Source: Amphiscolops sp. MND2022 (Eukaryota). Taken from it: DNA of 60,000 nt. Shown piece after piece: positions 1 through 60,000 of the stretch. The stretch spans positions 15,936,001-15,996,000 of the forward strand of contig OZ076409.1 in assembly GCA_964187785.1 (NCBI GenBank), given 5' to 3'. How positions within the stretch are numbered: position 1 is the stretch's first letter; every line of letters starts with the position of its first letter. Both the position numbers and the translations under genes were made by a program. A model generated the notes under the pieces. It had not been told where the DNA came from. It did not search any database and saw nothing but the letters and a program-made list of their open reading frames with translations.

Positions 1-2
1 AG

Positions 3-26866: not shown

Positions 26867-26970
26867 CTGAAACAAAAGCCATCAATACATAACAATGCTA
26901 TATTCAGCATCAATTACTTGGGCATTGGTTCAGGGTTCAATAGGAATGAAATGTCAGGAGGCTAGGCTAC

Positions 26971-33590: not shown

Positions 33591-33716
33591 AACGGGGACT
33601 GTTCAATTCGTCGAACATTCAATTCGTCGAACACGTATTACTTTAGCGAGCAATATATGACGTAATGGAATGAATTGATTTCGGCCAATCAAATTCGAGC
33701 ATTCAAAATTACGATA

Positions 33717-34141
33717 ACGTAGTCAGCTATGTCCACATACTCCTAGTGCCCTAAATGCAGGAGCGAAGCGGAGCGACGTGCCATATGGCCATGCCTCAAT
33801 GTTGCTACTTGGCGAACGGAGCGAAGCGACCGAGCCATATAACAAATATGCTAACCTCTTCAAATTATAACCTGAAAATAATCGCTGCTATGGAAATCTT
33901 TCGACGCTTTAAATACCTGATTTTTTCAACGCTTTGAATATTCTGCAATTTGAAAAGTGCATGAACTTTAGCGCCGATTATGCAATGTTTAATCCAAATA
34001 TTAGATATACATGTAGTATCAATATTTGTTGTATGATTCGGCCTTCAGAACCAGTCGCTGGACTAGTGATGGCACGTTGCTCCGGTTCGCTTCGCTTCTT
34101 TATTTAGGGCACTAGGGGTGAATGGATATAGATGACTACGT
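33717..34141. mobile_element. Foldback/MITE-like element with ~70-bp imperfect inverted arms containing GAGCGAAGCG motifs
   Basis: Arms at 33717-33784 and 34069-34141 (CCTAGTGCCCTAAAT / ATTTAGGGCACTAGG). A related copy lies at 59916-60000 on the minus strand. Confidence 0.65.
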
Positions 34142-34541
34142 TTCGATGTCGTGCAATACACAATTTCAATTGACTGATTTTAATTTTCAGCCAATCAGAA
34201 AACTTGATACATTCAGTCATTGAGTCATTCAGAAGGCACTGATCAAAAGTCGCTCGTGGAATCTTTCTGCCTCGATTATTAGAGCATCGATTGTCCTAAC
34301 CTTGATTACAAGATTTTAAAGACGTACATGTAGTTGAAACAAAATTCCGGAGCAACAATTATATCATATCAATCAACTCGTTGCAAAACGTAGAATTTTC
34401 AAAAAATTTTCTCGGCCGAGCAAAATGCACTCAAAACTAGCCAAGCTCGGCATGAACTCATTGATCTATCTCGTCAACTTCACGACAATTATGATTTTGA
34501 ATTATTAACGAATAGCTTCGATAAAGTCAATTACAACTAAC

Positions 34542-40549: not shown

Positions 40550-41623
40550 TCCGAGAATGATTCAGAAGACACTGATGAAACCTTGCTAGCAAAAGTTCAA
40601 CAAAAAAAATTAAAAAATCGAATCAATTTTTTTAAGTTTTCCTGAAACTTTCATAGTCGTCACTCGCTCATCGTAACATGAAAGGGGTTCCATTGTATGC
40701 CGACACTAAGAGCTTCAACAGATAGTTAGTTTTCAAGATGTGATCAAGTTCTGATTGGATAGTAGGAATAGGATAAAAATCGAAGGAAAATAATTAGAAG
40801 TACATGTATTCTGGAGATTATTCATCCAAAATTAAACAAAATCTGAAGAAATATATTAATCTCAAGATAATTACTTTTTAACTGATAATTAATTAAGTGG
40901 GAACAAAACTGAAGAAAACAACTGAAGAAAGGCTCAGCAGCACTAAATTGTAAAGCTAACCAAAAACGTTTTCCGCCGAAAATGGTTAATAAGTAACTTT
41001 ACTCGAAACCTGACCACTTGAAGCATCATACACATGAGCGTTTCATTAAGGTTCGTTGAAAAATAAAGGAAAAATTTGAACTAAGCCCGCTTATCTCAGC
41101 ACCCTCCTTAAAGCACCGATACCAAAATTATCTCCAAAAATAGCTCGGAACTTTTCCTTTCCCTCCCACACGCGAAGGATTACGTGAAAATATTGAAAAA
41201 CTGCTATGAATTAGTAGCGGATTGTATGAATTCATGTGACGTCATCAAAGAATGTGAATTAGAAAGTAATTTAGGAATTCTTAAAAAGGTGTTTTTAGTA
41301 CAACTCATTGGACAAAAATTTAGTTTTTGTAACGCGTGTGTGTGTGGGAAGGAAAAAGGTAATTGCCCTTAATTGCCTTAGAAGGTAACAGCTTCAGAAA
41401 CATTTAAAAAATCAGTAAAATTTTCAGCGTTTTTTCCGGAAAGACCAAATGAGACTAATGTAATTATTAGAAATAAAAACGACATAAACCAAGATATCGA
41501 TAATTCTAGTAACATTATTAGGCAATAAAATTGGGATATTTCCTAGCAAACTAAGGATACGCCCATAAGGTAACAACATAGTAAAATGTGGACATGAGCA
41601 TTAAGGAAACACAGTAAAGTGAG

Positions 41624-41847
41624 TCAATCAATTAAAGAAGTTTGCTTCAAGAAGTGAGAGAGAAACGTGACAACAGTTAGGTACAGGCCGAAGAGCGATA
41701 ATAAATATTGCGTCATTGATAAGCTGTGTGTGCTGTCTGTTATCAAAGGGTACAGCCACAAGCCCCGCCGTAGAGCGTCCCGCAGGTGATGAGTAATCCA
41801 GGAATTCAACAGACAAGTGGCCACCAGTAGCGATATTCGCTCATTCC
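41624..41847 (-). CDS. TMEM267: TMEM267-like exon 3 (stop)
   Basis: NSWITHHLRDALRRGLWLYP matches the TMEM267 SWxSHHxRDxxRxGLW motif. Acceptor GAACAG at 41849-41848. Confidence 0.85.
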
Positions 41848-43265
41848 CTGTTCCAGACATGCGCAAATACTACATTTAGTCCCAGCTTTAATTTCATACT
41901 TTCTCTAAACTGCTCTAATGTTCGGAATTAATTACTTTCTAACGAAAAAAAAATGAGCATAAATTGACCAGTGGCGGTTGAAAACGAAAAAATTAGCTGA
42001 CTGACAGCAGAGTCCCATCGTTGAAACGTTCCACGCAGTTTTATAGCCATTAAAATATTTTAACCCTAACTGACCCGCGCACGTTTGCAAATTTTCGAAA
42101 AATTGGATCAAAATTTTTCAATTGTTAATATGTCTACAACTATAAATACCAAACAAATGAGCTAGAGCGCTTTTGTAACGTCTGATACTGGGCTTTCATT
42201 TTGGTTTCTGCGCTCCTGTAGCCGGTGCCCTATTCTTCAGAATTTTAGTTTTTTCCGGTACGGCCGCTTCTCTGCCATTGCTCACTTCGTGCAGCCTGCT
42301 GCGCGGTGACTTCTAATAACAACAGCATATTTCTGGCTTTGTAGCACAAGGTTTAGTTGTAAAAGGATTTGGAGTTACCTTTCTTTATGGGTGGAAAATA
42401 AAAAAGAAAATTGGATGTTGCCAAAAAGATATTTGGAAAAGTATAAACATTTTTTGCTTTTTTGCAAGAAGAACCCTATTTTCTTAGCTTTGCAGAAAAA
42501 TTCTTTTTTGCTAATGCCTGTGCCGTTCAAACCAAACAAATTGTTACCTAAAAACGAAGCTAAAGAGTATGGGCTACTGGCAAAACGAGTCAGGAGCTGA
42601 AAAAAAGGTCGGGTACTTTAAAGTACCGCTAGGTTATTTAGGATTAACCCGTGCCCTTTGGAAAAACAAGCCGGGAACGGCATAAATCGTAATGCCCTCT
42701 TAATGCTCAAAGTACCCCGACGCCTTAAATAGTTTTTGAATAGTTCTGAATCTCCAACAAGGACAAAAATTGTAAGGAACCGTTTCTTGTTGGGTAGAAA
42801 AAGTAAAATCATCAGTTAGCCTCAAAAAAGGCCGAAGAATAGGAAAGCCTAGAGTTTCAGTTTTTATATCCGAAGTAATTGTTATATTCGTTATATTAGA
42901 AACTGGAATTAGTTCAATTTGAAAAATTGAACACCCCGGCATTGGTTCGATTCGGATCCCTAATTTCCACCAGGCAGGACGCAAAAAAAACGAAGAAACC
43001 ATATTTCGGAATTTACGACATATCCGGAATTTATCACCGTATAAACGATACAAAAAAATCCGAAAACAGTAACTGCAATTAGTTTGATCAAGTTTTAAAA
43101 GATGAACACCCTGACGTTTGATGGATTTGTACCAACTCCTGCCTATCAAGACGCAAGAAAACGAGAGAGGCGTACTTTTGGCGTTATAACAGGATTATAT
43201 CACTTTATAAATACGTTATAGCCGGAAACGCTATTCCTATAGTTCAAAATGGAAACAAATAGTAT

Positions 43266-43338
43266 TGGACCTGTGCAGGATTCGACCCCACGTCCTGCTG
43301 ATTCTCCGGCTAACGATGTAACCACTAGGGCATCGGGC
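43266..43338 (-). mobile_element. tRNA-derived SINE-like head or tRNA pseudogene
   Basis: Minus strand reads CCTAGTGGTTA (A-box) ... GGGTCGAATCC (B-box) at tRNA spacing; stems are imperfect. Confidence 0.45.
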
Positions 43339-43949
43339 TTCACTCTAAGGCAATTTGGCCTTCGGCACAAAATGGTCACTTCAACCGAAATGAAGAAAAA
43401 CACGACGAAAGACCACTATAATATACGTGGTTTATTTCATAAGGCATCGAATAAAAATGTGATAAGCGAGACTGGCGATTCCTTCAACAGGACGATTGCT
43501 AAGAAACAATATTTAAAAGGTGAATTGAATTACCTTGAATTTGAGTCAGCGATGAATTTAACACTGAACGATTTGAATTGAAGAAATTCACGAATCGTTC
43601 TGCATAATTATGGCACGGTCACAAACAAAGCTAGCATTGGGCTGAAGTTTATTTTCGGTCGTGTTTGTGACCAAAACCTGGTCTGTCAGCTCAATTTTCA
43701 TAAAGATCGCTCAAGAAAAATTGAGGTGTAGTAGTTATACTATTTTGATGTCAGAATGTATCAGAAATGATAATGCCTGAGAGGTTCAACTTGCTGTCCA
43801 ATTAATAGTGGACTAGATTTGTTGCACTCGTGACAACCCTTTTCAGCAGCAAGTTCGATTGGTTTGAGGCGACAAAAATGTATAATTATTTCAACCCAAA
43901 GCAAAGCTTCAAACAGCATTTTCCAGCATGTTCTTTGCTTGAGTCGGAA

Positions 43950-44192
43950 TAAACAAGTCGGTGCCAAAAAATGTAAAAGAGGGAACACTTTGGGATTTTT
44001 AAAAATCGATTCTGTTGCAAAATATCAAAAAAAATCGAAGGGGAGACAATTTAGTTTATTAAAACATCGAAAGGTGGAACCGTCCTGTTTTGTATGTCAC
44101 GCTGAAAAAAAGAACAACTAGTATAATTCAGATCTCTGGGCCAATTGGGCAAAGTTTTCTGGGCCAAAACTTCATGAAGCGCCGACTAAAAA
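43950..44192 (-). mobile_element. Short Helentron/DINE-like element
   Basis: AAGTCGGTGC ... ATGAAGCGCCGACTAAAAA; the interior resembles the other copies. Confidence 0.55.
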
Positions 44193-44470
44193 TGAATTCT
44201 CATCGGCAGATCCAACCATTTCCAAATTTGACGATTCAATTCGAGGACGGCCTACTAAACATTAGCACATCTTTAGTTTCGACCAAGCAGAACTAAACAG
44301 GCGAATAGTACAAATTAGTGAACTTCTACCGCCAACAAAGAGAAAGGCAATAAATATATTTGAAAAAACAACTGAAATTTACTGAGGAACAGAAGAAATT
44401 ACAGCAATGTAAAGTTGAATATCATACAAATCAGGGGCCAAAGCCGACAAAAGTCCATTTTTGCGCATGC

Positions 44471-44638
44471 CTGTTGTGATCCATTTAACTGAGAGATATG
44501 TAAGAATTGCGATAGTGAACACCAGTGGAGTGTTATGAAGAAATGGTCTTTTGCTGAGAGACGTGGCTGCTCCCAGACTGAAAGAACGGGCAGCCAAGAA
44601 ATGGTCCAGGTCCAAAATTGAGCCCAACACAAGGGCGA
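44471..44638 (-). CDS. TMEM267: TMEM267-like exon 2
   Basis: ALVLGSILDLDHFLAARSFSLGAATSLSKRPFLHNT matches the TMEM267 IDxDHF...RPFLH motif. CAG acceptor with CTAAC upstream; inferred GC donor at 44470. Confidence 0.87.
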
Positions 44639-45306
44639 CTGTGAGCGCACGTTTCGGTTAGTTCATTTTTCAAGTATCAAAGAACAAATTATCGTCAACT
44701 CTTTAGCAAGCTTTGGAAAAAACAGGGCAGTTCTAAAAAGGTGTGCACTTTTTTTAGCAACTGATGCTTTAATTCGAGTTTCAGAAAATCTGATTCAACT
44801 TCAAATTTTCTTTTCAAAACTCTCCGAGTTCAATCTGCTTCAAAAAACTTCGGACAGAATTGACTAAGCAGCAACGTGATCAAACTCTGATCCATTACAT
44901 TTCAGTTATATAACGGTTTCATTGAGAACAGCAGATTGACAGTTTAATTTAGAACATCTTTTCTTCGCAAAATTACTCTTTCTCATGTTGAAATGCCACA
45001 AAACATTAAGCTTGGAAATCAGAAAATTGCACAGAATCGCACAGAAAACTCCATTTTATATCTCACTATATGTCAATTCTAACGATTTGGGATATACTTT
45101 TTCGCAATAAAAATGCCGATCACAATCTAGAGTAATCAAGAACTTTCTCATTCCACAGAAACTAGAAGGGTACAAGAATTCAAAAATAGACCACAACCGA
45201 AAACTAAATGTTTCCGAGAAAATTACCGTTGAGCGAAGGAAAAATGTTTCTAATGAGGAACTTACCATTTCTACAGCTTCAAACAGTTTCTTACCTCCCT
45301 GCAACA

Positions 45307-45326
45307 ATGACTATGCCAGCGTCGTA
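45307..45326 (+). CDS. Calmodulin-like EF-hand protein, putative exon 1
   Basis: ATG ACT ATG CCA GCG TCG TA|GTAAGT. The phase 2 donor matches the acceptor at 54124. The start codon is uncertain. Confidence 0.55.
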
Positions 45327-45352
45327 GTAAGTAACATTCAAAAAACCAACCA

Positions 45353-46409
45353 TGTTGGCGCCAGAGATTGAGAAACCAACTTGAACATATTAGCTGGAAA
45401 TCTTGAGTTACAAAACTTTGTAAAACACTCGAAACTCATAACCATAATTCACTAACCTGTGCTGTTGTGAATATTTGAAGTCAAATGATTAATTTGGTAA
45501 TGGCGCTTAATGTTTGTACCGAAGTTCATTGTACTTTGACTCTATTCGAACGAGAGCGGTGGCGTGATTTGAGTCAAATGTTATCTATCCTACCTATCGG
45601 TCAAATTGCCGTTCATATTGCAGTTTCATTGATAGATTTACCTCTTTATGGAAAATTTTGGAAGGAATTTCCAAATTAGAGGTGTGAGAGGTCCGAAAAA
45701 CGTGATGGAAAAAGTGATCTTATGTAATTTTGTTATTTGAATATCCTGTGATTTTAAAGGTTATCAACTGTACATCCGCTGAGTAGAGTATAAATTTGAC
45801 CAATTTTGATACCATATTCAGAACGCTAATTAAAATATTCTTGAAACTTAAATGTCTTTGACAGCTGTTGAGTAGCTACCCCGGTTCCGGTTTAGACAGG
45901 TTGTGACTGGGAGGGTAGCATTGCACTACTCAACGATCGAAAAAATAAACGATCAGCTGTTTTAGGAGTCCAAATCAATCAGAAAAGTACTCTTGAAATA
46001 GCTTCATTAGGCGTAGTAGGTCTAAGATCTAGGAAAGCGTTCTATTATCGCTCATCGTAGTAGCGAGATTAAAAGCTCATCGTAAGAGCTATTCAATTGA
46101 AACGACAACCCTCTTTGGAGGCTTGGGTGGAAACAATCCGTTGAGGACGATCAGTTGCTGTGGTTGAGCGTACGACCTCCGGACAACAAGAGGTGAAGCA
46201 GATTTCCAGTCAAAAGAGGGATTGGGATCGAAGTGTTGCTTAGCCTGAAGAGTCTGGTGTTGAGGAGCACGAAGCCGCTAGCAGCTGAGAACTCATTGAA
46301 CAGATACAGTCCTTTAGAAAGTTTGTTCCTGCTTTTGGCCGAAGAAGTGGGAAGGATCAGGGACCGGCAGAAAGCTCAATTCCGCTGTAAGATTTGAGCG
46401 GCCGTTACA
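45353..46409 (+). repeat. 5' LTR (1057 bp)
   Basis: TGTTGGCG...CCGTTACA; matches 52881-53936 apart from one A in a homopolymer. Confidence 0.97.
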
Positions 46410-46428
46410 TTTGGTCCGCCGACCCGGA
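46410..46428 (+). promoter_or_regulatory. Primer-binding site, probably tRNA-Tyr
   Basis: TTTGGTCCGCCGACCCGGA directly after the LTR; it resembles the tRNA-Tyr-type PBS TGGTCCTTCGAGCCGGA of Bel/Pao elements. Confidence 0.75.
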
Positions 46429-46470
46429 CACTATTTGATTCGGAAATTGGATTGGAAATCGAGAAAGAAG

Positions 46471-49400
46471 ATGGCTTCGAACGTAATACCGGAGCTCGAT
46501 ATAACATGGTTCAAGGACGACAAAAGGTTGAAGGACCTGAAGAAGTCAGGTGATCTTGCCAAATGGAAAGCTGGCGTTGATGCCCTAGATAATAGCTTCA
46601 AAAACTTGAATGTGATTGTCTCAACAGATGAATTCAGCAAGAAAACTGACTGGACTCCAGATACCAAACTGGTCGTCTTGGGGAAATTCTACAGTGAATT
46701 CTCAACTGAAAAGCAGAAGTTCATGGACTTGGTGACCTCGATCACATCAATGTTGAAAACAAAGGCACTTGAAGAGCTTTTAGCTCATCAAAAACGAATT
46801 CTTTTCGGATTGGACAAAGCAGTGGAGCTATGGACGACAAACAACGCTGCCCTCAAATGGATTGTCAAGAAATCAGAGCTCCTCATAACCAAAGCATCTA
46901 TTGTGGAATATGGGAAGTTGGAAGACAAACAACGAGACATTCTTCAATCCCAAGCGGAGTTGAAACGAGAGATAAATGCTTTGATCGGACAAAAGGACAG
47001 AGTGTCAAAGATACGTCAACTCCTTCAACGGTTTACTCATAGACTAGAGGAACATAGAAAGCTTCAACAGCAGAAGCGGCAACTCATCAAACCTCTTTTG
47101 CTCACTTTACAAATCGAGGAAGCTGATGAGCGTGCGCAGGAGAAAGATCTACTTGGCTGGCTGAGCTACCTGAACGAACGCGAGGAGCAAAATGCCAGAG
47201 ATAAACAAAGTCAAATGGTTCATCAAAATTTCGACTTACCGGTGGCATCGAGGGAAGGCGAAGAACGCGTCCAAAATGTGGAGACAACAATGATACTGTC
47301 AGACAATGAAAATGAAGACGCTGAGCGCGTTGCCGGGCAAGGAAATGCTGGAGCCATTGGAGGAACTCCAGCAGCGGACGTTCCCACGGAGGAACCTAAC
47401 CCTAATGTAGGGGCAGCTGAAGTCAGCGTTGTATCCCCTCAAAAGGCATTCCCGATCACAGAAGAGCCAAAGGATATCATGGGCAGCGCTAGAAAACAAT
47501 TGGGATCAATTCCTTCGTCTCGATCGTCTCGGAGACGTGTGGAACTTGAAGCACAAATCTTCGAAGAACAAACAGAAGCTGAGATCAGAAAGAAGCAGCA
47601 GGAGATTGAGTTGAAACGGAAGCAACGAGAGATGGAATTGGCAATAGCAAAGGAGGAACTAGAATTGGAAGAGATGACCCGCAAGAAACAGCTTCATCTG
47701 AAAATGAAGAAGTTGGAAATAATGGAGCGAGCATCATCGAGATCTAGCATTTGCAGCATGGATCATTCTGAGACTGAGAAAGCCGCGACTACAAAAGATT
47801 GGTTGGAGTCGTCGAGGAACCTTTTCAATCACTCGAACGAGGACCAAAGACAACCGAACCTATATGTGAAGAGTGAAGAACAAGGCACATCATACGACTT
47901 CAATGACGACCAAGAGTATGTTTCAAAGGACCCATCGTTGCCCGGAAAACAAACAGACGTCAAAAGGAAAACGATTAAGTTCAACCCTGAGAGGATGTTT
48001 GTACCTCAGACAATCTCAACGCCCGCTGCGAGCAACAGCCCATTAAAACAATGGCAACGTAATCAACCGTTGGCAACAACATCATTCGGAGCTCTTCCAG
48101 CAGTAATGCCACCAATGAAACTACCGAAACTGGTTTTGGACAAGTTCGCTGGAGATCCTCTCGAGTGGCCTGAGTGGTCTGGGCAGTTTCTAGCAACTGT
48201 GGATCAAGCTGGAGTACCGGACAGTGTCAAGATGAACTACTTGAAAACTCTTGTAACGGGAAGAGCGAAATCATCAATAGACGGCATGGGCTACTCTGGT
48301 GGCATGTATCAAGTGGCTTGGCAAACACTTGAGCAAGATTTCGGTCGACCAGAACTTGTTGTCAATGCACAACTGAAGAGGATCCACTCTTACGGATTCA
48401 TCAAATCTCACGATTCAGTGGACATCATAAAGTATTCGCAAGTGGTTTCTGGATGTGTCAATGTCCTCACTCAGTATGGGTATGAAAGTGACATTGCTTC
48501 GGAGTCAGTGCTTAACAGTGCAGTAAGGAAACTACCAATCGAGCTCAAAAATAAATGGCTCTCTCACCTGCAACGATTCGACCCGACATACAAGAGCTTG
48601 AGGGTGTTCAGCGCCTGGTTGAAAAACATTGCTCAGGTACAAGAGAACATCCGCTTACAGTTCGGAAATGCAGGTGACAAGACGAAATCAACAACAAACA
48701 AAGACAAACCGAAGACAACCAGTTTTGCTGCTTCGACGGACTCCTCCACCAAAGGCAAACCCTCGTGTCCATTGAAAGACGGGGAACACAAGTTGTGGCA
48801 ATGTGAATTGTTCAAAAATATGAAACTAGCTGAACGATACGAAACGGTGAAGAAATACAACTTGTGCTTTTCTTGTCTCAGTTCCGGTCATCGCATTGGA
48901 CAATGCAAAAGCAACAGACTTTGTGGCAAGAATGGGTGCGGTAAACACCACAATCGCCTGTTGCACAGTGAAGAGAAACCAGATAGCAGTAAAATGGAAT
49001 CGAAAGGAGCGGATGGTGAGCAACCGAATCCAGTAGCCATCGCGAACTCATGCAGTGGGAGTCTGCAGATTGTGGCTTTGAGATTGTCACATGGAAACAA
49101 ATCGTGTGACACTTTGGCTATTTGTGACACGGGTTCTACGCTATCCTTCGTTGACGCAACACTGAAGAAAGAACTTCAAGCACAAGGTACTGGCTTGACT
49201 CTCAACATTGCAGGGATCAATGGCACGAAACAAATGCAAAGCGAGAAAGTGAAATTGGAAATCACAACTCCTACAGCTCGAGAAACTGTTTTGTTTCATG
49301 TGCATCCAAGCATGTTTCTGGGGAACAAGTCTTACGATTATCACTCTATCAAACAGAAATACAAACATCTAGATGTCCTACCAAATGCAGTGTTCGATTT

Positions 49401-52400
49401 GAGCAAAGTCAAGGTGGTTCTTGGGCAAGATAACTACCATTTGCTCTATCCAGTGGAATACAAGAAGGGACACAAAAATGAACCATGGGCGGTCAGAAAT
49501 AAACTGGGATGGACGCTCAGTGGCCCGCTTCCGAAACATGAAGTGGCCAATGTTGCATCAGCTACGAGTCATCTGGCATCAGAAGATAGTGAACTGAGCG
49601 TACAGCTAAAGTCCTGGTTCAGTATGGAATCATACGCGACGAGGGTGAACGTCAGCGGACGGTCAAAGGACGATAAAAGAGCTTTGGCGCAGTTGGAACA
49701 AACAACTAAATTGGTCGATGGTAGATATGAAGTCGGCCTACCATGGGCAGAAGATAACCCGAAGATCGAAAACAACTACTTCTCAGCGCATTCACAATTT
49801 TGCTCTTTGGAAAGACGCTTGGAAAAGGATCTTTCATTGAAAGCTAGATATCGAGACACAATTAAAGTAGATCTGGAGAATGAATATGTCAGGAAACTGG
49901 ATGAAGAAGAACTTGGAGAAACGAAGGATGAGACTCAGTGGTACGTGCCTCACCATCCCGTGATAAACCCTCACAAACCAGAGAAAGTCCGAAGGGTTTG
50001 CAATGCTGCAGCGAAATTTCGAGGAACTTCTCTGAACGATATGCTTCTCACGGGACCTGACCTCCTTCAAAACTTGGTGGGAATCATCTTCAGGTTCCGG
50101 GAGCATCCAATTGCCCTTACAGCTGACATAGAAGCGATGTTCTTGCAAGTTAAAGTGCCACCGCAAGACTGCAAGGTGTTACGTTTCTTATGGAGGAATA
50201 ACCCGAGTGATCCGATCTCCGTGTATGAATACACCCGGCATATTTTTGGAGCAAAGAGTAGCCCAACTTGTGCTAATTTTGCGCTGCAGAGAAATGCGAA
50301 GGACAACGAAAAGGACCACCCCATGGCGGCAAAAATCATCCAAAGGAACTTCTACATGGACGACTTTGCAAAATCAGTAGAGACTGAAGAAGAAGCACGT
50401 TTTGTGTACCAAGACGTGAGAGAGACATTGAGGCTCGGAGGTTTTAACTTGTTGAAATGGATCTGCAACAGTGAAGCTGTATGTAATTCGATACCTGAAA
50501 AAGATCGATCAGACGCAGTCAATAAGACCTTTGAGGCAGAGCCGCATACCTCTTCGCTTTTGGGACTTCAATGGAAAGTAGAAGCAGACGAACTTGAAGT
50601 TTGCCGTGGAGCTGACAAAGAAGTGCCAGTGAAAATCACTCAGAGAGCAGTACTCTCTTTCGTAGCCTCTGTCTTCGACCCACTTGGACTATTTGCACCA
50701 TTCACAATGAGAATGAGGATGTTGCTGAAGACGATCTGGGCGAAGACAGGTCAACAATGGGATCAAGAAATTGACATTGATGATCAGACAGTTTTCCTAA
50801 CATGGGCTAACGAGTTGAATCAATTGCCAAGTTCTCCACTGAGACGCAGATACTTCATGAGCCAGTTTGATAAAGTGGACTTGCACATCTTTTCAGACGC
50901 CTCTTTGGAATCCATGTGCATTGTTGCGTACATAAGGGCTCTTACACCAAGCGGAACAGAAGTTTCATTCGTGACGGGAAAGTGCCGAATAGCCCCAATG
51001 AAACAACAAACTATACCCAAGCTGGAGCTGCAAGCAGCATTGTACTCGGTGAGACTTAGGCAGCTGATAGAGAAGGAACACGACATCAAAATGGATTCAG
51101 TGACCCATTGGACGGATTCAATGACAGTGCTGAGGTGGCTTCATGCAGCACATAAGAAACAACAGGTGTTCGTCGCTAACAGAGTCGGGGAAATACTTGA
51201 TCAATCAACTGTAGACGAGTGGCGACATGTGAAAGGCTCCATGAACCCTGCGGATATTGGAACTCGAGGTGTCACTCTTGAGCAGTTGAGAGAAAGTGAG
51301 TGGCTACACGGGCCGGCCTGGTTGCAAGATGAACCGGAGAACTGGCCAGAGCAGCAGTTAGTCGAACACGAGGACGAACAAACATGGACTATAGCTTCCA
51401 GAGAGAGTATTCTTGATTGGACTAGATTCAGCCAATTCAAGCGATTACTCAATATGCTTGTCTACTGTCGAAGAATCAAAAACAAAAGAAGAGGACCCTT
51501 GATGCCCGATGAGCTGAATTCAGCAGAATTGACGATCCTGCAACTCTCACAGCGGGAGAGCTACCCTGAGCTGTATGAAAAGCTCATCAAAAGTAGTGGA
51601 AAGCCTGCCAAGAATGACTTGGCTAAATTGTGTCCATTTCTAGACAAGCAGGGCACAATTAGACTGAAAGGACGGCTGAACAAGTCAATGCTTCCTGATG
51701 AGACGAAGCATCCAATTCTTCTTTCAGCTAAACACCCTGCGATTGTTCTTCTCGTGAGACAAGCTCACGTGGACAATCATCATGAAGGAACTGAGCATGT
51801 CAGAAACATACTCCAGCAACAATACTGGATAACTGGACTCAGAAACGCTTTGAGACGCATCAAGTACAGCTGTGTACAATGTCGGAAAGCTGCTTCACAA
51901 CCTTTTCAACCTCACATGGCAGACTTGCCTAAGGAGCGAGTGCAGCAGAACGTGTACCCTTTCAGCAACACAGGGGTCGACTACTTTGGACCCTTCGAAG
52001 TGACATTCTTCAGGAAGACAGTCAAGTACTGGTGTTGTCTCTTCACTTGTCTAGTCACTAGAGCAGTTCACATCGAAGTCGTGAACGGCTTGGACACAGA
52101 CGCGTGCATGATGGCAATCACGCGATTCATGGCAAGGAGAGGCAAGCCATTGAAAATCATCAGTGACAATGGCACTAACTTTGTTGGAGCTGCACGGGAG
52201 TTCAAAGAATGCTTCAGTGAATGGAATCAAGATGCTATTTCGGAAAATCTTGCAAAGCAGCGCGTCGTTTGGCAATTCAATCCCCCCGGAGCGCCACATT
52301 TCGGTGGTATATGGGAGCGACTTGTGAGAAGTTGCAAAAAGTCTATGATTGCTATCTTGGGAAGTCGACGCTTGACTCTACCAGTACTCACCACAACGAT

Positions 52401-52899
52401 GTGTCTGGTTGAACAGACGCTAAATTCAAGGCCTTTGACGCCTGTCAGTGATGATCCAGAGGATCTAGAGGCATTAACGCCTAACCATTTTCTACTGGGC
52501 AGACCTGCAATTTCGGAGCCATTATTTCCGGATGCATCAAGATACGTGAACTGTCGAAAGCTCTACAAAGCGTCTCAAGCATATCATGAAATGATATGGA
52601 AAAGATGGGCTCGCGATTATCTGCCGCAATGGAACGTGCGACCTAAATGGGGGAGCAATGACGTGCGAGCCCTCCAAGTAGGTGATCTGGTGTGGGTCAT
52701 TGATGAGTCAGTGAAGCGGTGCAAAAATCAAATGGCTAGAGTTTTGGATGTCTTCCCGGGCAGTGATGGAGTGGTTCGATCAGCAAAGATACAGACTTCA
52801 AATGGGATATTCGTTCGACCCGCTGTGAAGCTGGCGCCACTATTGGACGATTGTTTTCAGAGAGAAAACAGGGCCGGCGATGTTGGCGCCAGAGATTGA
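46471..52899 (+). CDS. Bel/Pao Gag-Pol polyprotein (2142 aa from the first ATG)
   Basis: Coiled-coil N-terminus, DUF1759, three Zn knuckles, protease ICDTGS, RT YMDD, RNase H FSDAS and integrase HHCC/DYFGP/SDNG. The stop codon lies inside the 3' LTR. Confidence 0.97.
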   Translation: MASNVIPELDITWFKDDKRLKDLKKSGDLAKWKAGVDALDNSFKNLNVIVSTDEFSKKTDWTPDTKLVVLGKFYSEFSTEKQKFMDLVTSITSMLKTKALEELLAHQKRILFGLDKAVELWTTNNAALKWIVKKSELLITKASIVEYGKLEDKQRDILQSQAELKREINALIGQKDRVSKIRQLLQRFTHRLEEHRKLQQQKRQLIKPLLLTLQIEEADERAQEKDLLGWLSYLNEREEQNARDKQSQMVHQNFDLPVASREGEERVQNVETTMILSDNENEDAERVAGQGNAGAIGGTPAADVPTEEPNPNVGAAEVSVVSPQKAFPITEEPKDIMGSARKQLGSIPSSRSSRRRVELEAQIFEEQTEAEIRKKQQEIELKRKQREMELAIAKEELELEEMTRKKQLHLKMKKLEIMERASSRSSICSMDHSETEKAATTKDWLESSRNLFNHSNEDQRQPNLYVKSEEQGTSYDFNDDQEYVSKDPSLPGKQTDVKRKTIKFNPERMFVPQTISTPAASNSPLKQWQRNQPLATTSFGALPAVMPPMKLPKLVLDKFAGDPLEWPEWSGQFLATVDQAGVPDSVKMNYLKTLVTGRAKSSIDGMGYSGGMYQVAWQTLEQDFGRPELVVNAQLKRIHSYGFIKSHDSVDIIKYSQVVSGCVNVLTQYGYESDIASESVLNSAVRKLPIELKNKWLSHLQRFDPTYKSLRVFSAWLKNIAQVQENIRLQFGNAGDKTKSTTNKDKPKTTSFAASTDSSTKGKPSCPLKDGEHKLWQCELFKNMKLAERYETVKKYNLCFSCLSSGHRIGQCKSNRLCGKNGCGKHHNRLLHSEEKPDSSKMESKGADGEQPNPVAIANSCSGSLQIVALRLSHGNKSCDTLAICDTGSTLSFVDATLKKELQAQGTGLTLNIAGINGTKQMQSEKVKLEITTPTARETVLFHVHPSMFLGNKSYDYHSIKQKYKHLDVLPNAVFDLSKVKVVLGQDNYHLLYPVEYKKGHKNEPWAVRNKLGWTLSGPLPKHEVANVASATSHLASEDSELSVQLKSWFSMESYATRVNVSGRSKDDKRALAQLEQTTKLVDGRYEVGLPWAEDNPKIENNYFSAHSQFCSLERRLEKDLSLKARYRDTIKVDLENEYVRKLDEEELGETKDETQWYVPHHPVINPHKPEKVRRVCNAAAKFRGTSLNDMLLTGPDLLQNLVGIIFRFREHPIALTADIEAMFLQVKVPPQDCKVLRFLWRNNPSDPISVYEYTRHIFGAKSSPTCANFALQRNAKDNEKDHPMAAKIIQRNFYMDDFAKSVETEEEARFVYQDVRETLRLGGFNLLKWICNSEAVCNSIPEKDRSDAVNKTFEAEPHTSSLLGLQWKVEADELEVCRGADKEVPVKITQRAVLSFVASVFDPLGLFAPFTMRMRMLLKTIWAKTGQQWDQEIDIDDQTVFLTWANELNQLPSSPLRRRYFMSQFDKVDLHIFSDASLESMCIVAYIRALTPSGTEVSFVTGKCRIAPMKQQTIPKLELQAALYSVRLRQLIEKEHDIKMDSVTHWTDSMTVLRWLHAAHKKQQVFVANRVGEILDQSTVDEWRHVKGSMNPADIGTRGVTLEQLRESEWLHGPAWLQDEPENWPEQQLVEHEDEQTWTIASRESILDWTRFSQFKRLLNMLVYCRRIKNKRRGPLMPDELNSAELTILQLSQRESYPELYEKLIKSSGKPAKNDLAKLCPFLDKQGTIRLKGRLNKSMLPDETKHPILLSAKHPAIVLLVRQAHVDNHHEGTEHVRNILQQQYWITGLRNALRRIKYSCVQCRKAASQPFQPHMADLPKERVQQNVYPFSNTGVDYFGPFEVTFFRKTVKYWCCLFTCLVTRAVHIEVVNGLDTDACMMAITRFMARRGKPLKIISDNGTNFVGAAREFKECFSEWNQDAISENLAKQRVVWQFNPPGAPHFGGIWERLVRSCKKSMIAILGSRRLTLPVLTTTMCLVEQTLNSRPLTPVSDDPEDLEALTPNHFLLGRPAISEPLFPDASRYVNCRKLYKASQAYHEMIWKRWARDYLPQWNVRPKWGSNDVRALQVGDLVWVIDESVKRCKNQMARVLDVFPGSDGVVRSAKIQTSNGIFVRPAVKLAPLLDDCFQRENRAGDVGARD

Positions 52900-53936
52900 G
52901 AAACCAACTTGAACATATTAGCTGGAAATCTTGAGTTACAAAACTTTGTAAAACACTCGAAACTCATAACCATAATTCACTAACCTGTGCTGTTGTGAAT
53001 ATTTGAAGTCAAATGATTAATTTGGTAATGGCGCTTAATGTTTGTACCGAAGTTCATTGTACTTTGACTCTATTCGAACGAGAGCGGTGGCGTGATTTGA
53101 GTCAAATGTTATCTATCCTACCTATCGGTCAAATTGCCGTTCATATTGCAGTTTCATTGATAGATTTACCTCTTTATGGAAAATTTTGGAAGGAATTTCC
53201 AAATTAGAGGTGTGAGAGGTCCGAAAACGTGATGGAAAAAGTGATCTTATGTAATTTTGTTATTTGAATATCCTGTGATTTTAAAGGTTATCAACTGTAC
53301 ATCCGCTGAGTAGAGTATAAATTTGACCAATTTTGATACCATATTCAGAACGCTAATTAAAATATTCTTGAAACTTAAATGTCTTTGACAGCTGTTGAGT
53401 AGCTACCCCGGTTCCGGTTTAGACAGGTTGTGACTGGGAGGGTAGCATTGCACTACTCAACGATCGAAAAAATAAACGATCAGCTGTTTTAGGAGTCCAA
53501 ATCAATCAGAAAAGTACTCTTGAAATAGCTTCATTAGGCGTAGTAGGTCTAAGATCTAGGAAAGCGTTCTATTATCGCTCATCGTAGTAGCGAGATTAAA
53601 AGCTCATCGTAAGAGCTATTCAATTGAAACGACAACCCTCTTTGGAGGCTTGGGTGGAAACAATCCGTTGAGGACGATCAGTTGCTGTGGTTGAGCGTAC
53701 GACCTCCGGACAACAAGAGGTGAAGCAGATTTCCAGTCAAAAGAGGGATTGGGATCGAAGTGTTGCTTAGCCTGAAGAGTCTGGTGTTGAGGAGCACGAA
53801 GCCGCTAGCAGCTGAGAACTCATTGAACAGATACAGTCCTTTAGAAAGTTTGTTCCTGCTTTTGGCCGAAGAAGTGGGAAGGATCAGGGACCGGCAGAAA
53901 GCTCAATTCCGCTGTAAGATTTGAGCGGCCGTTACA
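52881..53936 (+). repeat. 3' LTR (1056 bp), preceded by PPT-like AGAGAAAACAGGGCCGGCGA
   Basis: Direct repeat of 45353-46409. Confidence 0.97.
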
Positions 53937-54124
53937 AACCATTTGAACAAACTCAAAACTCAATTGGTTGGCTTTTTTCCGAAAAAATGGGACTAGATTT
54001 ATAATTGCATGTACAAGTTGCAAAATGGTAATTCTTGAGAAATGGTAATTTGCATGTTAACTAGACTTAAAACAGGATAAATTAGGTAATCGTTTTAGTC
54101 AGACGAGTTATTCTTTATTTATAG

Positions 54125-54188
54125 CTCCGTTGCCTACGACCATGCACAGCGATTGAAGATGAAGAGCTTGTTCGAAGAATTCGACCAG
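54125..54188 (+). CDS. Calmodulin-like EF-hand protein exon 2
   Basis: Polypyrimidine TAG acceptor; SVAYDHAQRLKMKSLFEEFDQ is the entering helix of EF-hand 1; CAG|GT donor. Confidence 0.8.
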
Positions 54189-55120
54189 GTTGCTTGTTTG
54201 TCCAACTTGAAAAAAACTTGAAATTTTGATCGCTTTTCATCAAAAAAGCGGTGTTAAAAAAGCATCTATTTTCACGCCTTCGTAGGCATTAATAGGCTTG
54301 AGAAACGTCATGAATCCAAACAGTCCGTAATTGCATCCGTAGATAAAAGCACTGTCAAACTGCGGTACATTACGTGCTTTGCTTTCAGAGTAACCGATCC
54401 TATGAAAGCGAGCATACACTGATCCAAATAACAAATTAACGCAGCCATTACGTAAAATTCATCTACATTTGGCATTGAGTCATCGTCCACAGTTTAAAAA
54501 ATGTCCATAATAGAAAAACTAGAATTTTTCTGTGAGGCAAATGTTCAGCAACAGGCGGCGCATGAATACTACTTTAGTGGAGAAAATGAGCCTTAGCAGT
54601 AACAGGCGGTCTTTTCACACAAGAAATCCTGAAAATTGGCTTTAAATTCAACCAATATACCATATATGGCATGATGGTTGCTAATTGAAGGATCAAACGA
54701 GGCGGAGGTTAACATGGAATGATGCGGACATTGCGTCACTCATAACTTTTTATACGGTTACTGACTTGAAATGACGTCACAACATCTATTGTAATTTATA
54801 ATTAGAGTTCAACATTTTTTTGTAGAAAAATGGCAACCACATTAACATGGTTCGAAAATATTCAATTGCATCGTCGTCAACAGTGATAAAAGCTGATAAT
54901 TCAAACCCTCCAGAAAAAGTTTCAACAGTGGCGGCGTTACAAATTCCTCCTCAAAAGCGCGTACGGAGAAGCAAGCCTTTACGCATCAGTGAATACAGCT
55001 CATTCACAAATGTTGCTCGCTAGAAAGCCAGGCCAAGTAAAATCGCTACTATTTCCGAGCCATTTGTTTTATCAAGAAGCATCGAATGAACTTGAAAGGC
55101 AACAAGCAACCGCGGAATAG

Positions 55121-55198
55121 GACAACAGCGGAAAACTAGATTGCCGAGAGTTCCAACTGCTGCTTCAAAAGTTCGGCATTTCTTTGCCATACGACCAG
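55121..55198 (+). CDS. Calmodulin-like EF-hand protein exon 3
   Basis: DNSGKLDCREFQLLLQKFGISLPYDQ completes the loop DQDNSGKLDCRE begun in exon 2; 78 bp, phase 0/0. Confidence 0.82.
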
Positions 55199-55711
55199 GA
55201 ATAGTTGAAAAATTTTCAGCTAAGCAAAAACTGAATGCACAAAATTACCGAAAAAAAGATATTCAGCGACGATGCAATCCTGACTTGCAACTTGTATGTT
55301 TTATGCAACAATTTTCGACGAATTCAAAACGCAGGAAAGCGTCATTTTCGGACAGAATGACAAGATTTTGAAGTCTTACCTCCTCCAATTCGCAGGAACA
55401 GTTGAGACAGATAATCTGTAACTGCTAATTTGTAACGGTAAACTTAAATATTTTTGATCGATTTGAAACAAATGAGTGACCTTGAAGAACGCACGTCGAA
55501 TTTGATATTGTTTTAAACGGATTTTACCGTACATATTCGATTTTTCACAACCCTGAAAAACCAGTGACAAAAAATTGAAGATTGGTCAGCTCGGTTTAAA
55601 TTTCAGAATTTTTGAATTTCTTGGCTCAGAGATACGATGGCAACTTCAAGTATTCAAAGTGCCCGTTTTTCATCTCAGTTTTTACAATTGTCATTCTTAC
55701 CTTAACTTGTG

Positions 55712-56109
55712 TTTTTAGACGGCTTTTCTTTCAAGGAAAAGTGTCCGAATTACAGTGATTAGTTTTTTGTCAATCTCACTCTGAATAGTCTTTTTGTGCA
55801 CGGTGCACATTTATGATAGGTACTTAGTATTTAATTTTGAACGCAACGAAAGCCGTCCCGCTTTCCAGTTTTTTTGGCACTATGAGATTTTCCCCTTTTG
55901 GCTTTGTGAAATTTTTTTTGAAAATTATTGTCTCCAAAGGGTTCCCCTCTCACGTTTTTTGGCACTACGAGACTTCCAAAATTCTTCTCTGTTTTCGACA
56001 CTTTTTAGTGAGTTTTTCATAACAAAACGTCCTGTGCATATTTCATAAACTTTGCGCTTTTTGAGCCTTAGGTATAGCGCCGACTTGGAGATGTTGCCGT
56101 CTTATTTTT
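55712..56109 (+). mobile_element. Non-autonomous Helentron/DINE-like element in EF-hand intron 3
   Basis: TTTTTAGACGGC stem-loop at the start and AGCGCCGACTT plus a hairpin at the end. It is a reverse-orientation relative of 12111-12590. Confidence 0.65.
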
Positions 56110-56145
56110 GAACCAATTGAACAGTATTCCTGCACATAAAAATAG

Positions 56146-56490
56146 TGTGTGAAATGCATCACGGAACAAACAGGCGGAAACGAGGAACTAACGTTTGAGG
56201 ACTTTCTAGACATCTACCCGAAAATCAAGCCGAAAAGTTTCGAAGAGGAGATCAAAAATGCGTTTGAATTGGTGGATTTGGACAGAAGCGGAAAACTGGG
56301 TCGAGACGAGATTAAGGCCATGATGATATCGGCAGGCGTGAAAGACATCACAGACGCCGAAGTAGAGTTTCTTATTTCTGAATACGACAAAGATGGCGAC
56401 GATGAATTGAACTTTGATGAGTTTAAGGCTTTCATGATGGATGACATATCAGATAACAGGATTTTCAAATCTGCAAACAACCAAATTTGA
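56146..56490 (+). CDS. Calmodulin-like EF-hand protein exon 4 (degenerate EF2, EF3, EF4, stop)
   Basis: Loops DLDRSGKLGRDE and DKDGDDELNFDE; TAG acceptor at 56143-56145. Confidence 0.9.
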   Translation, partial: CVKCITEQTGGNEELTFEDFLDIYPKIKPKSFEEEIKNAFELVDLDRSGKLGRDEIKAMMISAGVKDITDAEVEFLISEYDKDGDDELNFDEFKAFMMDDISDNRIFKSANNQI

Positions 56491-56815
56491 CTCGCAGACT
56501 GACGCTAATCATCTTGAACAAATATTGCAACACTTTTGTCCAGCAAAGTAGATTCAGATTTCACACTATACTCGCAGTTGCGGTGTTTGGATAGAGTTGT
56601 TAGCTGATTATTGGGGGATGGCGGACATGAAAACATGGACACGCGATTAATCATGCTTTAGATTTGCATTCCAGTTCGTTATTACCCCATTTTGAATAGT
56701 AAACTTGCAACCGATTAGTCATGAAATTGCTAAATTTTTAGAACGAATTGGCTGTTTTGTTTCTAAGGTTCCGCATAATTGTTTTCTAAGGTTCTGCCTA
56801 CAGTGAAGAAGTTAA

Positions 56816-57301
56816 CCATAAATGGACGAGGAAATTTCTGGATCCATCCAAAATTTTGGTACTTAAATTTCAAACCGCAATATCTCCTAAATTAATCAAC
56901 TCCGACAAACGATTTATGGCCCGTTCTAAAGAAGACAATCAGGGCTTCGCCACACTGGCTCCGGACTTTGCGACAAAACTTTGCACGCCTCGCGTCTCTG
57001 GCTGCATTTCAGCATGTTTCAAAACATGCTAGGGCCACTTTGACCCAATCTTGATACTTCAGTGGGATAAAGTGGCCACACAAGAAAACAGGAAAATTTG
57101 CACTCATTTTTTTGATTTTTTGGTCCCGTTTCCTTGATTTCGGAGACATCAAGTCAGTATTCCGTGAAAAGGTGTGCAATGCTATGTAATATCGTCCGAA
57201 AATCTCATTCAAGAGTTTTCTTCGCCATACGGCCAGCTGAGGCCTTCAGAAGTTTGCAGAAACTAACGGTACGAATTCAACCCTATCTCGTCCATTTAGG
57301 G
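56816..57301. mobile_element. piggyBac-like MITE (486 bp)
   Basis: TTAA on both sides and a 15-bp TIR CC(A/C)TAAATGGACGAG. Confidence 0.8.
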
Positions 57302-58894
57302 TTAATTTAAAAGGAAATTTTTTCGAACAATAAAATACAGCCAGAGTTGGCTTTCAATAGAATCAAAAAAATTAAATCCAGAATCAGTTTATATTGATTT
57401 AAGAAAGAAAATATATTTCATCTCAATTAAGAAATTCAGGAAAATTTGATCAGAAAACATTTTCTTGTCTTCGACGACAATTTCATGAAGGAAAACAAAT
57501 TATACAAAATGGTAGATTAATTGAGTCAAAAATTGGGTCAATTCCGTTGAATTCAATCAGTAATCAATATAATTTAAAATCTGATTACATCAATTATAAA
57601 AATTTGATTTTCTATAATTTTGTTTCCTCCATAGGTTTGTTGATTATGATCTATATTTGATTCAAGAGACAAAAAAAAGCGGAGTGGCATTGAGATACTT
57701 TTCTCGAGGGTTAGCAAAAACGTATAAACTTATACAAGGAAAGTTTCGGCTTATATACATGCCTTCACCTGACCAAAACCTTGCTATGATAAATGGTCAC
57801 AATACTGAAATATTTTGTAGAATACGTCGAAATGGCAACGTCGTTCGTCGATAATTTTCAAAAAGTTGGCCGAAGTTGGCTGGTAAAGCAACTGTGAGAC
57901 TTGTGTAAGCATTTAGACCGCAGTATTGAGACCCAAGTGCTTGAAATGAAACATTCACGGATTGCACTGTCCAGGAATAAAATGGTATCCTTCAATTTTC
58001 TCGGTTTGCATTGCCATACTCAATAGGATAATACCTCGAAGGACATTTAACCCCAGTGGAAGACGGTATTGCAACAATAATAATGAACTTGAATGCATGT
58101 ATTGAACTTTTTGCCAACACAACGAATTCAATTCATTTCAATGCCTGAAGTAGAAGTTTTTTCGTTTACAGCTACCATAAAAATAATTATGCACTTTTTT
58201 GAATTTCAAATTTATTTTTACAATATTTTGCAAATTGTCGTAATTCAAATCCTTTTCCTTACCATAACACGTGAATTAAAATCAGCAATCGTCTAAAACA
58301 AATATATTGAAAAAACAAAATACATCAAATTTAACCACACACTTGTGCGTGATTGAACAGTCAATTGATTAACTTAACGATGCATTAACAGATTCAGTAT
58401 ATAAACCTGCGGTCTCGACTGAAATTAATTTTTCGATGCATGAACAAGCCATCGAATAACTAGTACATAATAGGTAAAAATTCCTTTTCCCTAACACGAA
58501 GTTTTTCGTTTGAACAAAACATTTTCACACACTTTGAATATGATTGTCTTGTCTCTGAGTTAACCGTTTTTACTACTCAAGAGAAAAAGCTGTTGACTTA
58601 CTATTCAGGAATGCGTGACTTCATAAGAGAAATAGTGTCAACAAATATTTATAGCTGGAACCTAAAGCTACTGCCCGTAGCTGCTCCCGCGTCTTAAACA
58701 ACAATTACCAAGTTAACAAAATATGGGCTCGCGATCGTCACGATGTCTTCTACTATTGAAACGGTTCGACTTTAAAATCGTTTACACAAACTTTCAGGAG
58801 AAATTAAACAGAAGATCGAGTTAACTATTTGAATCAGCTAGTAAACTGATCACGTCTAAAGATTTTAAAGTCCCAAGATTTGCAGCGAACTAAC

Positions 58895-59114
58895 CGAAAC
58901 ACAGCATGAAAGAATCGAACTTTGCATTAACCATTGCGATTGTTACCCAAGAGAGCATACTTATTAAAGCATGCAAGCTGTTATCACAGACAGCTCGCTT
59001 CAAACGACTTTGGTCATTCAGAGTAGGAAAAAAAGGTTGTTCTATTAGCCAACAGAAAATCAGGAGTATACACTCACAGCAAACCGACAGGATCTGAACA
59101 AGACTTGGTACCAT
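58895..59114 (-). CDS. TMEM267: TMEM267-like exon 1
   Basis: MVPSLVQ...LKRAVCDNSLHALISMLSW matches the TMEM267 RAxxDNxxHxxIxxxSW motif. The G|GTTAGT donor (phase 1) fits exon 2. The joined CDS is 612 nt. Confidence 0.87.
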
Positions 59115-59599
59115 GTGATGAATCAGGCAAAATCATAAACCTGAAAAGGCACTGATCAAAAAGCGCTGATAACGACTAATCAATTCGTAATTGAAATGTA
59201 CTTGGATTTTTTGTTCTTTTATTTCTTTTCTTCATTCTTTTTTCCCCACTATCAGTATCATGCATCTTCATCAATCAAGCGCCATGTGTGTCATGTTTTT
59301 TCTTCTCTTTATTCACTATCAGATATCACGGATCTTCGTCATCAATCAAATGCCATGTGTGTCATCATAATGGGAGAAGACACACACCCGTGTTCTGCAA
59401 CGAAAGGAGGAAACCCCATACCAGCCACTATCCCAATCAAAAACAAACAACCAAACTACTCATACCAGCCACAATCCCAGGCGGTAGAAAAAGTTTCAAA
59501 AAACCTACAATAATATACAGGTTTGCAAAAAAACGACTATATGTAATATATATCCCCTATTTGCGGGATGATGATTTGGTGCTTATTCATACAGCCGAA

Positions 59600-59890
59600 A
59601 ATGAAAATTTGGTCCCATACAGCCGAATTTAAATTACTAGCTTTTAGTGCTGTTACAGCCAATATGTTGGAACTTGATTTATTCACAGGTTCTTTTCTGA
59701 TCTGTCGGCCACAGCCTCTGTCGATCAGCTCTTTCATGTGAGTCCATTTCTCACAAGGAACTCGGTGTTGAACATTTTGTGTTCCCAGTGTCTGTCTAAA
59801 CTTTTTAAAAGCGTTTACGTTGTCACAGCGCACAACTGTTTCTGGCATTGAATTCCAATCCGCTACTGCAGCGACAGCAAAAAAGTTATA
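59600..59890 (-). mobile_element. 3' fragment of a CR1/L2-like LINE
   Basis: FFAVAAVADWNSMPETVVRCDNVNAFKK is a typical ORF2 C-terminal motif, followed by a 3' UTR-like tail. Boundaries are approximate. Confidence 0.6.
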
Positions 59891-59915
59891 TATAAAAGGT
59901 TTGCATATTTGTTGT

Positions 59916-60000
59916 ATGGCTCGGTCGCTTCGCTCCTTTCGCCAAGTAGCAACATTGAGGCATGGCCACATGACACGTCGCTCCGCTTCTCTTCGCTCCT
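59916..60000 (-). repeat. Copy of the GAGCGAAGCG foldback repeat family, cut by the window edge
   Basis: Reverse complement of ~33760-33840. Confidence 0.8.

Follow-up and report, generated by a model that had tools for sequence, protein, structure and literature searches.

The TMEM267 locus

We analyzed a 60,000-nucleotide (nt) stretch of the genome of the acoel Amphiscolops sp. MND2022 (contig OZ076409.1, positions 15,936,001 to 15,996,000; hereafter the window), in which the gene TMEM267 is interrupted by two introns whose ends are, in each case, complementary to each other. The gene occupies the following positions of the window:

58895..59114, reverse strand: exon 1, coding, 220 nt, aligned without gaps to Symsagittifera roscoffensis P0253
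44639..58894, reverse strand: intron 1, 14,256 nt, phase 1, GT-AG
44471..44638, reverse strand: exon 2
41848..44470, reverse strand: intron 2, 2,623 nt, phase 1, GC-AG, likely born from a hAT transposon
41624..41847, reverse strand: exon 3, reaching the stop codon

The predicted three-exon product (59114-58895, 44638-44471, 41847-41624) is 203 amino acids long, and its junctions, like those of the related GC-AG introns described below, are predictions from protein homology. With exon 2 as the query, 131 homologues were recovered, the nearest clusters of which include proteins named for S. roscoffensis, a species that also provides the best named match for a myosin (85% cluster) and a dynein (90%), in keeping with an animal that is a related acoel. 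Among the closest relatives, records P0121 and P0252 carry ORFs with 98-100% identity to exon 2. In the alignment to the S. roscoffensis protein, junction 1 is free of gaps and junction 2 has a single additional residue. Scored against three acoel-like homologues, 58894/44639 is the top in-frame GT/GC-AG choice for intron 1 (1036 versus 1017 for the next), in agreement with the placement of a 14.3-kb intron here by an earlier note on this DNA, and the GC junction is the top in-frame choice for intron 2 (1036 versus 1030, or 6 points lower, for the next GC donor). A broad profile is less decisive on donors and, for intron 2, cannot tell a GC junction from a GT junction. The model is unchanged when borders other than GT/GC-AG are allowed. 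An alternative in-frame donor for intron 1 at position 58900 scored lower and could remain a minor site. Additional TMEM267 exons were sought within intron 1 and none was found (best E 2.3). Exons 1 and 2 have no match in Pfam, a word-based search with exon 3 returned no match, Rfam has no match to positions 41000-60000, and a scan of JGI metagenomes for relatives of the gene yielded 17 loci, of which none is an acoel-like orthologue.

Genomic open reading frames (ORFs) of the S. roscoffensis cluster end at the codon that carries intron 1, where the sequence MLFSL is followed by read-through GQF in the same phase, and the position of this intron is therefore shared with that species. The donor context there, as judged by back-translation, is different (G|GTCARTTY). 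A third acoel-like record, P0122, translates F-L-F-S into exon 2, which would imply an ordinary U-rich TTYTCAG acceptor in that species. The position of intron 2, by comparison, is uninterrupted in the ORFs of the S. roscoffensis cluster and in P0122 (P0255, P0127, and P0122 all read through), so intron 2 is likely to be a later gain.

As the earlier note had reported, a nested gene and transposons reside within intron 1:

45353..53936, reverse strand: BEL/Pao retrotransposon, with 1,058-bp long terminal repeats (LTRs) and a 5-bp target duplication
56146..56490, forward strand: ORF for an EF-hand (calmodulin-like) protein, running antisense to TMEM267; no first exon was found

The BEL/Pao element accounts for 8,584 of the 14,256 nt (60%), and its LTRs differ by a single 1-nt indel; the insertion is very recent, and the intron that preceded it measured about 5.7 kb. 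Part of the remainder consists of smaller repeats and the antisense EF-hand ORF.

Complementary ends of intron 1

The two ends of intron 1 carry a 14-bp inverted repeat, placed as follows:

58887..58900, reverse strand: 5′ arm, nucleotides -6 to +8 around the GTTAGT donor
44651..44664, reverse strand: 3′ arm, nucleotides -26 to -13, with a branch-like CTAAC at 44661-44657
44639..44650, reverse strand: spacer of 12 nt and acceptor, with no U-rich tract

The arms are exact reverse complements, as previously described. The 5′ arm reads GTTTCG|GTTAGTTC, and the 3′ arm stops 12 nt short of exon 2, its CTAAC placing a branch-like adenosine at 44658 (-20). When both ends of the intron were folded together, the stem was predicted with a probability near 1, and neither end folds notably alone. 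The predicted duplex has an energy of -23 kcal/mol and covers the branch-like adenosine and nucleotides +1 to +8, with a G-U pair at +9. The extension through G-U pairs that had been suggested is recovered in this fold (pair probability 0.74-0.93). The other suggested extension, in which exon CTGT pairs with the terminal ACAG across an 8-nt bulge, is geometrically possible, but it comprises only 4 bp and lies outside the predicted fold.

Inverted repeats of this length are ordinary in the window, where 31 of 274 perfect inverted pairs of at least 12 bp reach 14 bp, and thus only the placement of the arms is of consequence. Across the 1.07 Gb of the genome the 14-mer has five occurrences, and the arms themselves account for two of them, which makes a chance origin unlikely. 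An order-5 Markov model expects 12.5 genome copies, and it gives a probability of 2e-7 for a match within 40 given positions. The pairing score of intron 1 is equaled by 2 of 59,852 permuted donor/acceptor pairs from the intron survey described below. The three other genome copies (L132-L134) are unrelated beyond 17-23 nt; L132 and L133 are two copies of a repeat that has 17-19 nt in common with the junction of TMEM267 exon 1 and intron 1, where the likeness ends. We also considered whether donor and branch-point consensus sequences might supply six of the pairs freely. This was rejected, as ACTAAC is present in only 3 of the 221 GT-intron acceptor regions used for comparison. Against the same set, the intron 1 acceptor scores in the lowest 2.3%, and its content of two T residues in 16 nt is matched by a single intron.

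A class of GC-AG introns with paired ends

Pairing between donors and the sequences preceding acceptors was surveyed using a spliced profile-to-genome aligner, written for this purpose and limited to GT/GC and AG borders, which was applied to genomic loci encoding myosins, kinesins, dyneins, and kinases. From 698 predictions, among which 127 dynein predictions were repeats made in a second round and one duplicated kinesin locus was dropped, we retained 412 distinct introns in which each end had support of 3 nats or more (397 GT and 15 GC). Permuted donor/acceptor pairs served as the null. Three of the 412 introns reach a pairing score of at least 12, versus 0.32 expected, and all three are GC introns. 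The dynein rounds contain no confident intron with a score above 10 (among 94 and 242), and one of 31 kinase introns scores 10. When the seven introns of a presumed AKAP1/spoonbill-like gene elsewhere in the window were inspected by eye, their ends showed no notable complementarity (scores 3.5-9.5). A general need of long introns for such a clamp was likewise rejected: none of 19 sampled introns longer than 5 kb (up to 19.7 kb) has a stem, the best score being 9, and length therefore does not require one.

Six of the 15 GC introns have donors of the form CAG|GCA(T/G/C)G, and all six have an arm (scores 13.5, 12.5, 12.5, 10, 8.5 with a bulge, and 7). This type makes up about 1.5% of the sampled introns (6/412), and its acceptors are mostly weak. 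A further eight GC introns (four GCTAGT, GCAAGC, GCGAGA, and two doubtful cases) score 3-8. A kinesin intron at L146:1973-2801, with an AAG|GCATCC donor, a purine-rich acceptor, and an offset 10-bp arm (+11 to +28), is perhaps another variant of the CAG|GCA class. Intron 2 of TMEM267 has the same architecture:

44460..44473, reverse strand: intron 2 5′ arm, nucleotides -3 to +11
41854..41867, reverse strand: intron 2 3′ arm, nucleotides -20 to -7, forming 13 Watson-Crick pairs and one G-U pair at +1
42052..42648, no strand assigned: dispersed repeat of about 600 bp lying inside intron 2 and sharing about 72% identity with 43 listed copies

Ungapped pairing of nucleotides +3 to +9, with a partner ending 6-18 nt before the acceptor, is common to both TMEM267 introns and five of the six sampled CAG|GCA introns. 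Across intron 2 and the five ungapped sampled introns with CAG|GCA(T/G)G donors, nucleotides +3 to +9 are paired at 42/42 positions and Watson-Crick pairs occupy +1/+2 at 4/12, in registers taken from the best alignments and with the exclusion of one intron, dyC11a, that pairs only with a 2-nt bulge. Intron 1 aside, the introns bearing these stems span 347-2,623 nt. In a myosin VII-like gene (L018:2819-3705), two hAT-type introns are consecutive, as the two paired introns of TMEM267 are, and introns of the class may cluster in genes.

Evidence for a probable hAT origin of the class

Pieces of hAT transposase are abundant in the genome sequence examined, and when 919 kb was scanned de novo for inverted ends flanked by exact 8-bp duplications, 47 matches were obtained, compared with one in shuffled DNA. 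The living elements have YAGNG ends and 8-bp duplications. Among 32 YAG-starting elements in 1.62 Mb, a set for which a match at positions 7-10 was required and whose families are not independent, 62 of the 64 ends have G as their fifth base, and the two ends of an element differ from each other mostly at positions 4 and 6. One hAT element lies within the window at 12759-14954; its ends read CAGGGGCTGGGA, its 8-bp duplication is exact, and its transposase frame is split in two (13039-14565 and 14556-14834).

Counted from nucleotide -3, 15 of the first 16 nt of intron 2 agree with the left terminus of hAT element L117, and no reliable likeness extends further. The sole mismatch is a G-to-C change at position 5, which creates the GC donor. 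Two right arms of class introns read C(A/G)GAGATG, and in three of the six the C at position 5 is also present in the 3′ arm, restoring the pair. The 8 nt preceding CAG and the 8 nt following the partner CTG, compared over the same introns as the pairing counts (dyC11a excluded), are identical at 22 of 48 positions (46%; empirical p 0.001); intron by intron the matches are 4, 5, 4, 1, 4, and 4 of 8, such that a relic of the duplication is evident in aggregate only. No corresponding signal for Tc1/pogo (TA) or other duplications was found in the GC class at lengths of 2-7 or 9-13 nt. In two class introns the layout is exactly that of a net-zero hAT insertion (end, 8 nt, CAG).

Both of the class bodies searched genome-wide are single-copy (2/2), in a DNA search that may miss very common repeats, and we therefore regard the class as a fossil and not as an active family of introners. 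The ends of intron 2 match no other copy, the only matches to this intron being through its inner repeat. A pattern search for young copies, limited to one narrow range in which the two hAT-like ends are separated by 150-180 nt, found none. Together, these features suggest that the CAG|GCA introns, including intron 2, are likely to be old hAT insertions. As the duplication and body have decayed with the stem core left intact, and as three arms carry the compensating C at position 5, selection on the pairing appears likely. Alternatively, an extinct hAT family with C at position 5 of both ends, combined with fast change on the acceptor side, might account for the same pattern.

Donor recognition by U1

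The U1 small nuclear RNA (snRNA) genes of this genome are themselves variable. In 21 of 23 matches the 5′ end was read, giving seven standard ends, six ending in CCTT, three with ACTAACCTG, three with TTAAACCTG, and two others; genes with changed donor-recognition ends include L201, L207, L208, and L213-L215 (G000 C3, C7, C12, and C13). The ACTAAC variant, represented by the three ACTAACCTG copies, fits GTTAGT, the commonest donor (42/397), and U1 variants and donors have likely coevolved. None of the 21 U1 copies matches the GCATG donor, and five of seven class donors rank among the weakest 9% in pairing with U1. The intron 1 arm includes ACTAACC, identical to the 5′ terminus of one of the genome's U1 variants, and the best pairing of any variant with the intron 1 donor is -9.3 kcal/mol, versus -23 kcal/mol for the stem.

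A proposed splicing aid and its alternatives

In the model we propose, a hAT element with an end reading CAGGG.. would insert into an exon, a G-to-C change at the fifth base of the element would produce a CAG|GC donor, and the acceptor would be an AG located within the duplicated target or immediately downstream of it. The body of the element would then decay and the inverted ends would be retained, because pairing between them would bring the splice sites close to each other despite a poor match to U1 and a poor U-rich tract. It is likely, judging from the pattern of sequence retention, that the paired ends of these introns have been kept for helping excision. The duplex formed between U1 and the donor is normally unwound by Prp28. 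An analogous unwinding of the stem would be needed so that U6 and U2 can bind.

The least secure step of this model is that intron 1, a GT intron in an ancestral position, would use the same aid. Its repeat is likely to represent an RNA stem, as predicted by folding, that holds the donor near an unusually weak acceptor, and we lean towards the view that this stem is a splicing aid shared with the hAT-born class, as part of a lineage-wide device whose principal users would be the old, probably hAT-derived introns. Its 3′ arm may have arisen from an older transposon birth, from a templated inverted copy, or by stepwise selection. More tentatively, and with the balance against so specific a formulation, the pairing may be an intramolecular mimic of U1 in a class of introns of this acoel lineage: the segment upstream of the acceptor would bind the donor of its own intron, carry it to the 3′ end, and substitute for both a U-rich tract and a good match to U1. 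This device would derive from hAT ends, be kept by selection, and have been adopted by at least one ancestral GT intron, that of TMEM267.

The earlier note had argued for selection on the grounds that the stem stayed perfect despite the nested insertions. That argument fails, since insertions in the interior leave the intron ends unchanged. Its conclusion fares better: the pairing of the ends is non-random and selection is likely, but the support is of another kind, namely the recurrence of the same architecture in intron 2 and the GC-AG class together with the very weak acceptor of intron 1.

Several observations weigh against a common splicing aid. GT introns show no excess of pairing (1/397 at a score of at least 11, with about 1.0 expected), and pairing as a property of all introns of the genome was rejected for this reason; intron 1 therefore has no GT companion in the sample. 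It lacks a YAGNG hAT end, its exon ending in TCG, and it has no 8-bp target duplication (3/8 in the hAT register, against a background of 2.0). Its position is older than a new insertion would be, as the sharing with S. roscoffensis indicates. Nor is it multi-copy, its 14-mer having three other copies and its ends matching nothing notable in 1.47 Mb. Its donor, assessed with the best U1 variant, is stronger than 76% of GT donors, and the weakness of its acceptor is in part due to the A-rich arm. A stem over the donor and branch point could also block splicing instead of helping it. For the class as a whole, the bulge of dyC11a, the choice of registers from best alignments, and the possible omission of common repeats from the genome search are weaknesses. 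Moreover, one class intron (dyC1d, L053:3783-4129) coincides in codon and phase with an ordinary GT intron in the dynein paralogue dyC12c (L061), which may mean that the two were gained in parallel at a CAG site or that an old intron has been replaced. A position in common with a paralogue is found for 1/7 class introns versus 129/370 ordinary introns, a difference that is not significant.

Among the rival explanations for the intron 1 stem, the one that survives best, although we consider it unlikely, is that the donor region was recently copied in inverted orientation without functional consequence, by a templated repair insertion or as the duplicated end of an inversion, in an event unrelated to the hAT class. 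Perfect identity of the arms is the expectation for a recent copy, and the lack of a target duplication or hAT end would fit one; in addition, the 3′ arm is situated like an insertion between a T-rich stretch and the AG, and an inverted acceptor-like TTTGCAG lies directly inside the 5′ arm. A recent inversion of the intron interior is nonetheless disfavored by strand skew, which in the unique sequence of intron 1 is +0.082 (T over A) and at both ends has the same sign as in other introns (+0.036). A repair copy taken from 14 kb away, from exactly the donor to exactly the branch region, is itself improbable, and the same layout in intron 2 also argues against such a copy.

An inhibitory stem, one that hides the donor and branch point and thereby slows or regulates the removal of intron 1 (through retention, or helicase or ADAR control), appears improbable. 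The predicted duplex is far stronger than the best U1 pairing and covers +1 to +8 and the branch-like adenosine, and the cut site that is usually mismatched in the GC class is fully paired in intron 1, all of which would suit such a role. Because the 3′ arm is transcribed 14 kb after the donor, however, U1 would be expected to bind first, and a purely inhibitory stem would not persist in the constitutive motor-protein exons that carry the GC class.

Chance complementarity picked out by a large scan is distinctly improbable. Permuted pairs reach the intron 1 score at a rate of about 3e-5, which for an assumed 1e5 introns may give a few cases per genome; the word AACCGAAAC recurs as a subterminal motif in a local hAT family, and the want of a GT companion among 397 introns also fits. 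These considerations are opposed by the low expectation for this non-repetitive 14-mer (2e-7 per intron end, with only three other genome copies), by the rarity of ACTAAC, which is not a free consensus here, and by the membership of the neighboring intron 2 in a 1.5% class of the same layout.

The halves of split introns in Giardia are transcribed separately and joined by trans-splicing. A comparable arrangement for TMEM267, with the stem joining separate transcripts, would match the layout of donor-region/acceptor-region pairing in those introns and the existence in acoels of spliced-leader trans-splicing (reported for 30.2% of S. roscoffensis genes; PMC9911081), but it is extremely improbable given that the halves are collinear on one strand, that introns of 347-2,623 nt have the same stems, and that intron 1 has no sign of an internal transcription end or start.

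Transposon-born introns are rarely seen in animals, having been found only while their copies are still alike, and here old single-copy examples can be recognized by a stem that has outlasted the rest of the element. The survival of the stem suggests that inverted ends are needed for splicing, and are more than a scar. This bears on how a new insertion becomes a tolerated intron and on whether pairing can replace U1 and U2AF in an animal, and the acoel has culturable relatives.

Other features of the window

The AKAP1/spoonbill-like gene, a name we assign presumptively, extends over 26500-36430 on the reverse strand and has a long low-complexity exon as well as KH (Pfam) and Tudor-like exons. 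A second BEL/Pao element (1-10600, forward strand) has about 3.5 kb of its gag region tandemly duplicated, and a tandem array at 19600-24600, with a period of about 1.27 kb, is made of dispersed repeats.

Comparison with known systems

Transposon-born GC-AG introns and stems that bridge intron ends are already known. Introners with terminal inverted repeats (TIRs) and target-site duplications (TSDs) have been described in Micromonas (IE1), Aureococcus, and dinoflagellates (PMC11282704; PMC9860276; PMC12130899). The acoel class has in common with them inverted ends, a target duplication, and an aquatic host, as well as the division of labor by which a DNA transposon gives the 5′ GC donor and the target side gives the acceptor AG (PMC11282704). 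It differs in that the acoel bodies are single-copy and old, with hAT ends bearing the G5-to-C change, a retained stem, and a decayed duplication; being single-copy and old, they would be missed by the family searches used for introners. Intron 1 itself is without a TIR/TSD scar. Introners were reported in only two animal groups by Gozashti et al. (2022), whose main text names neither acoels nor hAT (PMC9860276), and supplementary tables of the introner surveys may list either. Our literature search, with subscription papers and supplements outside its scope, found no paper joining acoels with introners or such stems.

Other systems resemble the acoel introns in the pairing itself. The sister stwintrons of Hypoxylaceae have terminal inverted repeats in U2 introns whose reacting nucleotides are often unpaired, like +1/+2 of the acoel class, but these are 45-55-nt, multi-copy repeats in fungi, with no target duplication (PMC8469720). 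In the nonconventional introns of euglenids and the non-canonical introns of Fritillaria, transposon-derived ends pair and bring the intron ends together (PMC11282704; PMC13326754); those introns lack GT/GC-AG borders, whereas the acoel ones keep them and form a minority of about 1.5%. A further parallel is provided by the structure-bridged (AC)m-(GT)n introns of zebrafish, in which complementary ends enforce the pairing of splice sites and take over the role of a good pyrimidine tract and of U2AF2 (Lin et al., 2016; PMC4691745). There, simple repeats lie beside the splice sites (PMC4691745), whereas the acoel arms are unique sequences of 12-16 nt that include the donor and part of the exon, and no AC/GT simple repeats are present in the arms of intron 1. 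As in the structure-bridged type, the acoel introns have ends that are complementary above chance.

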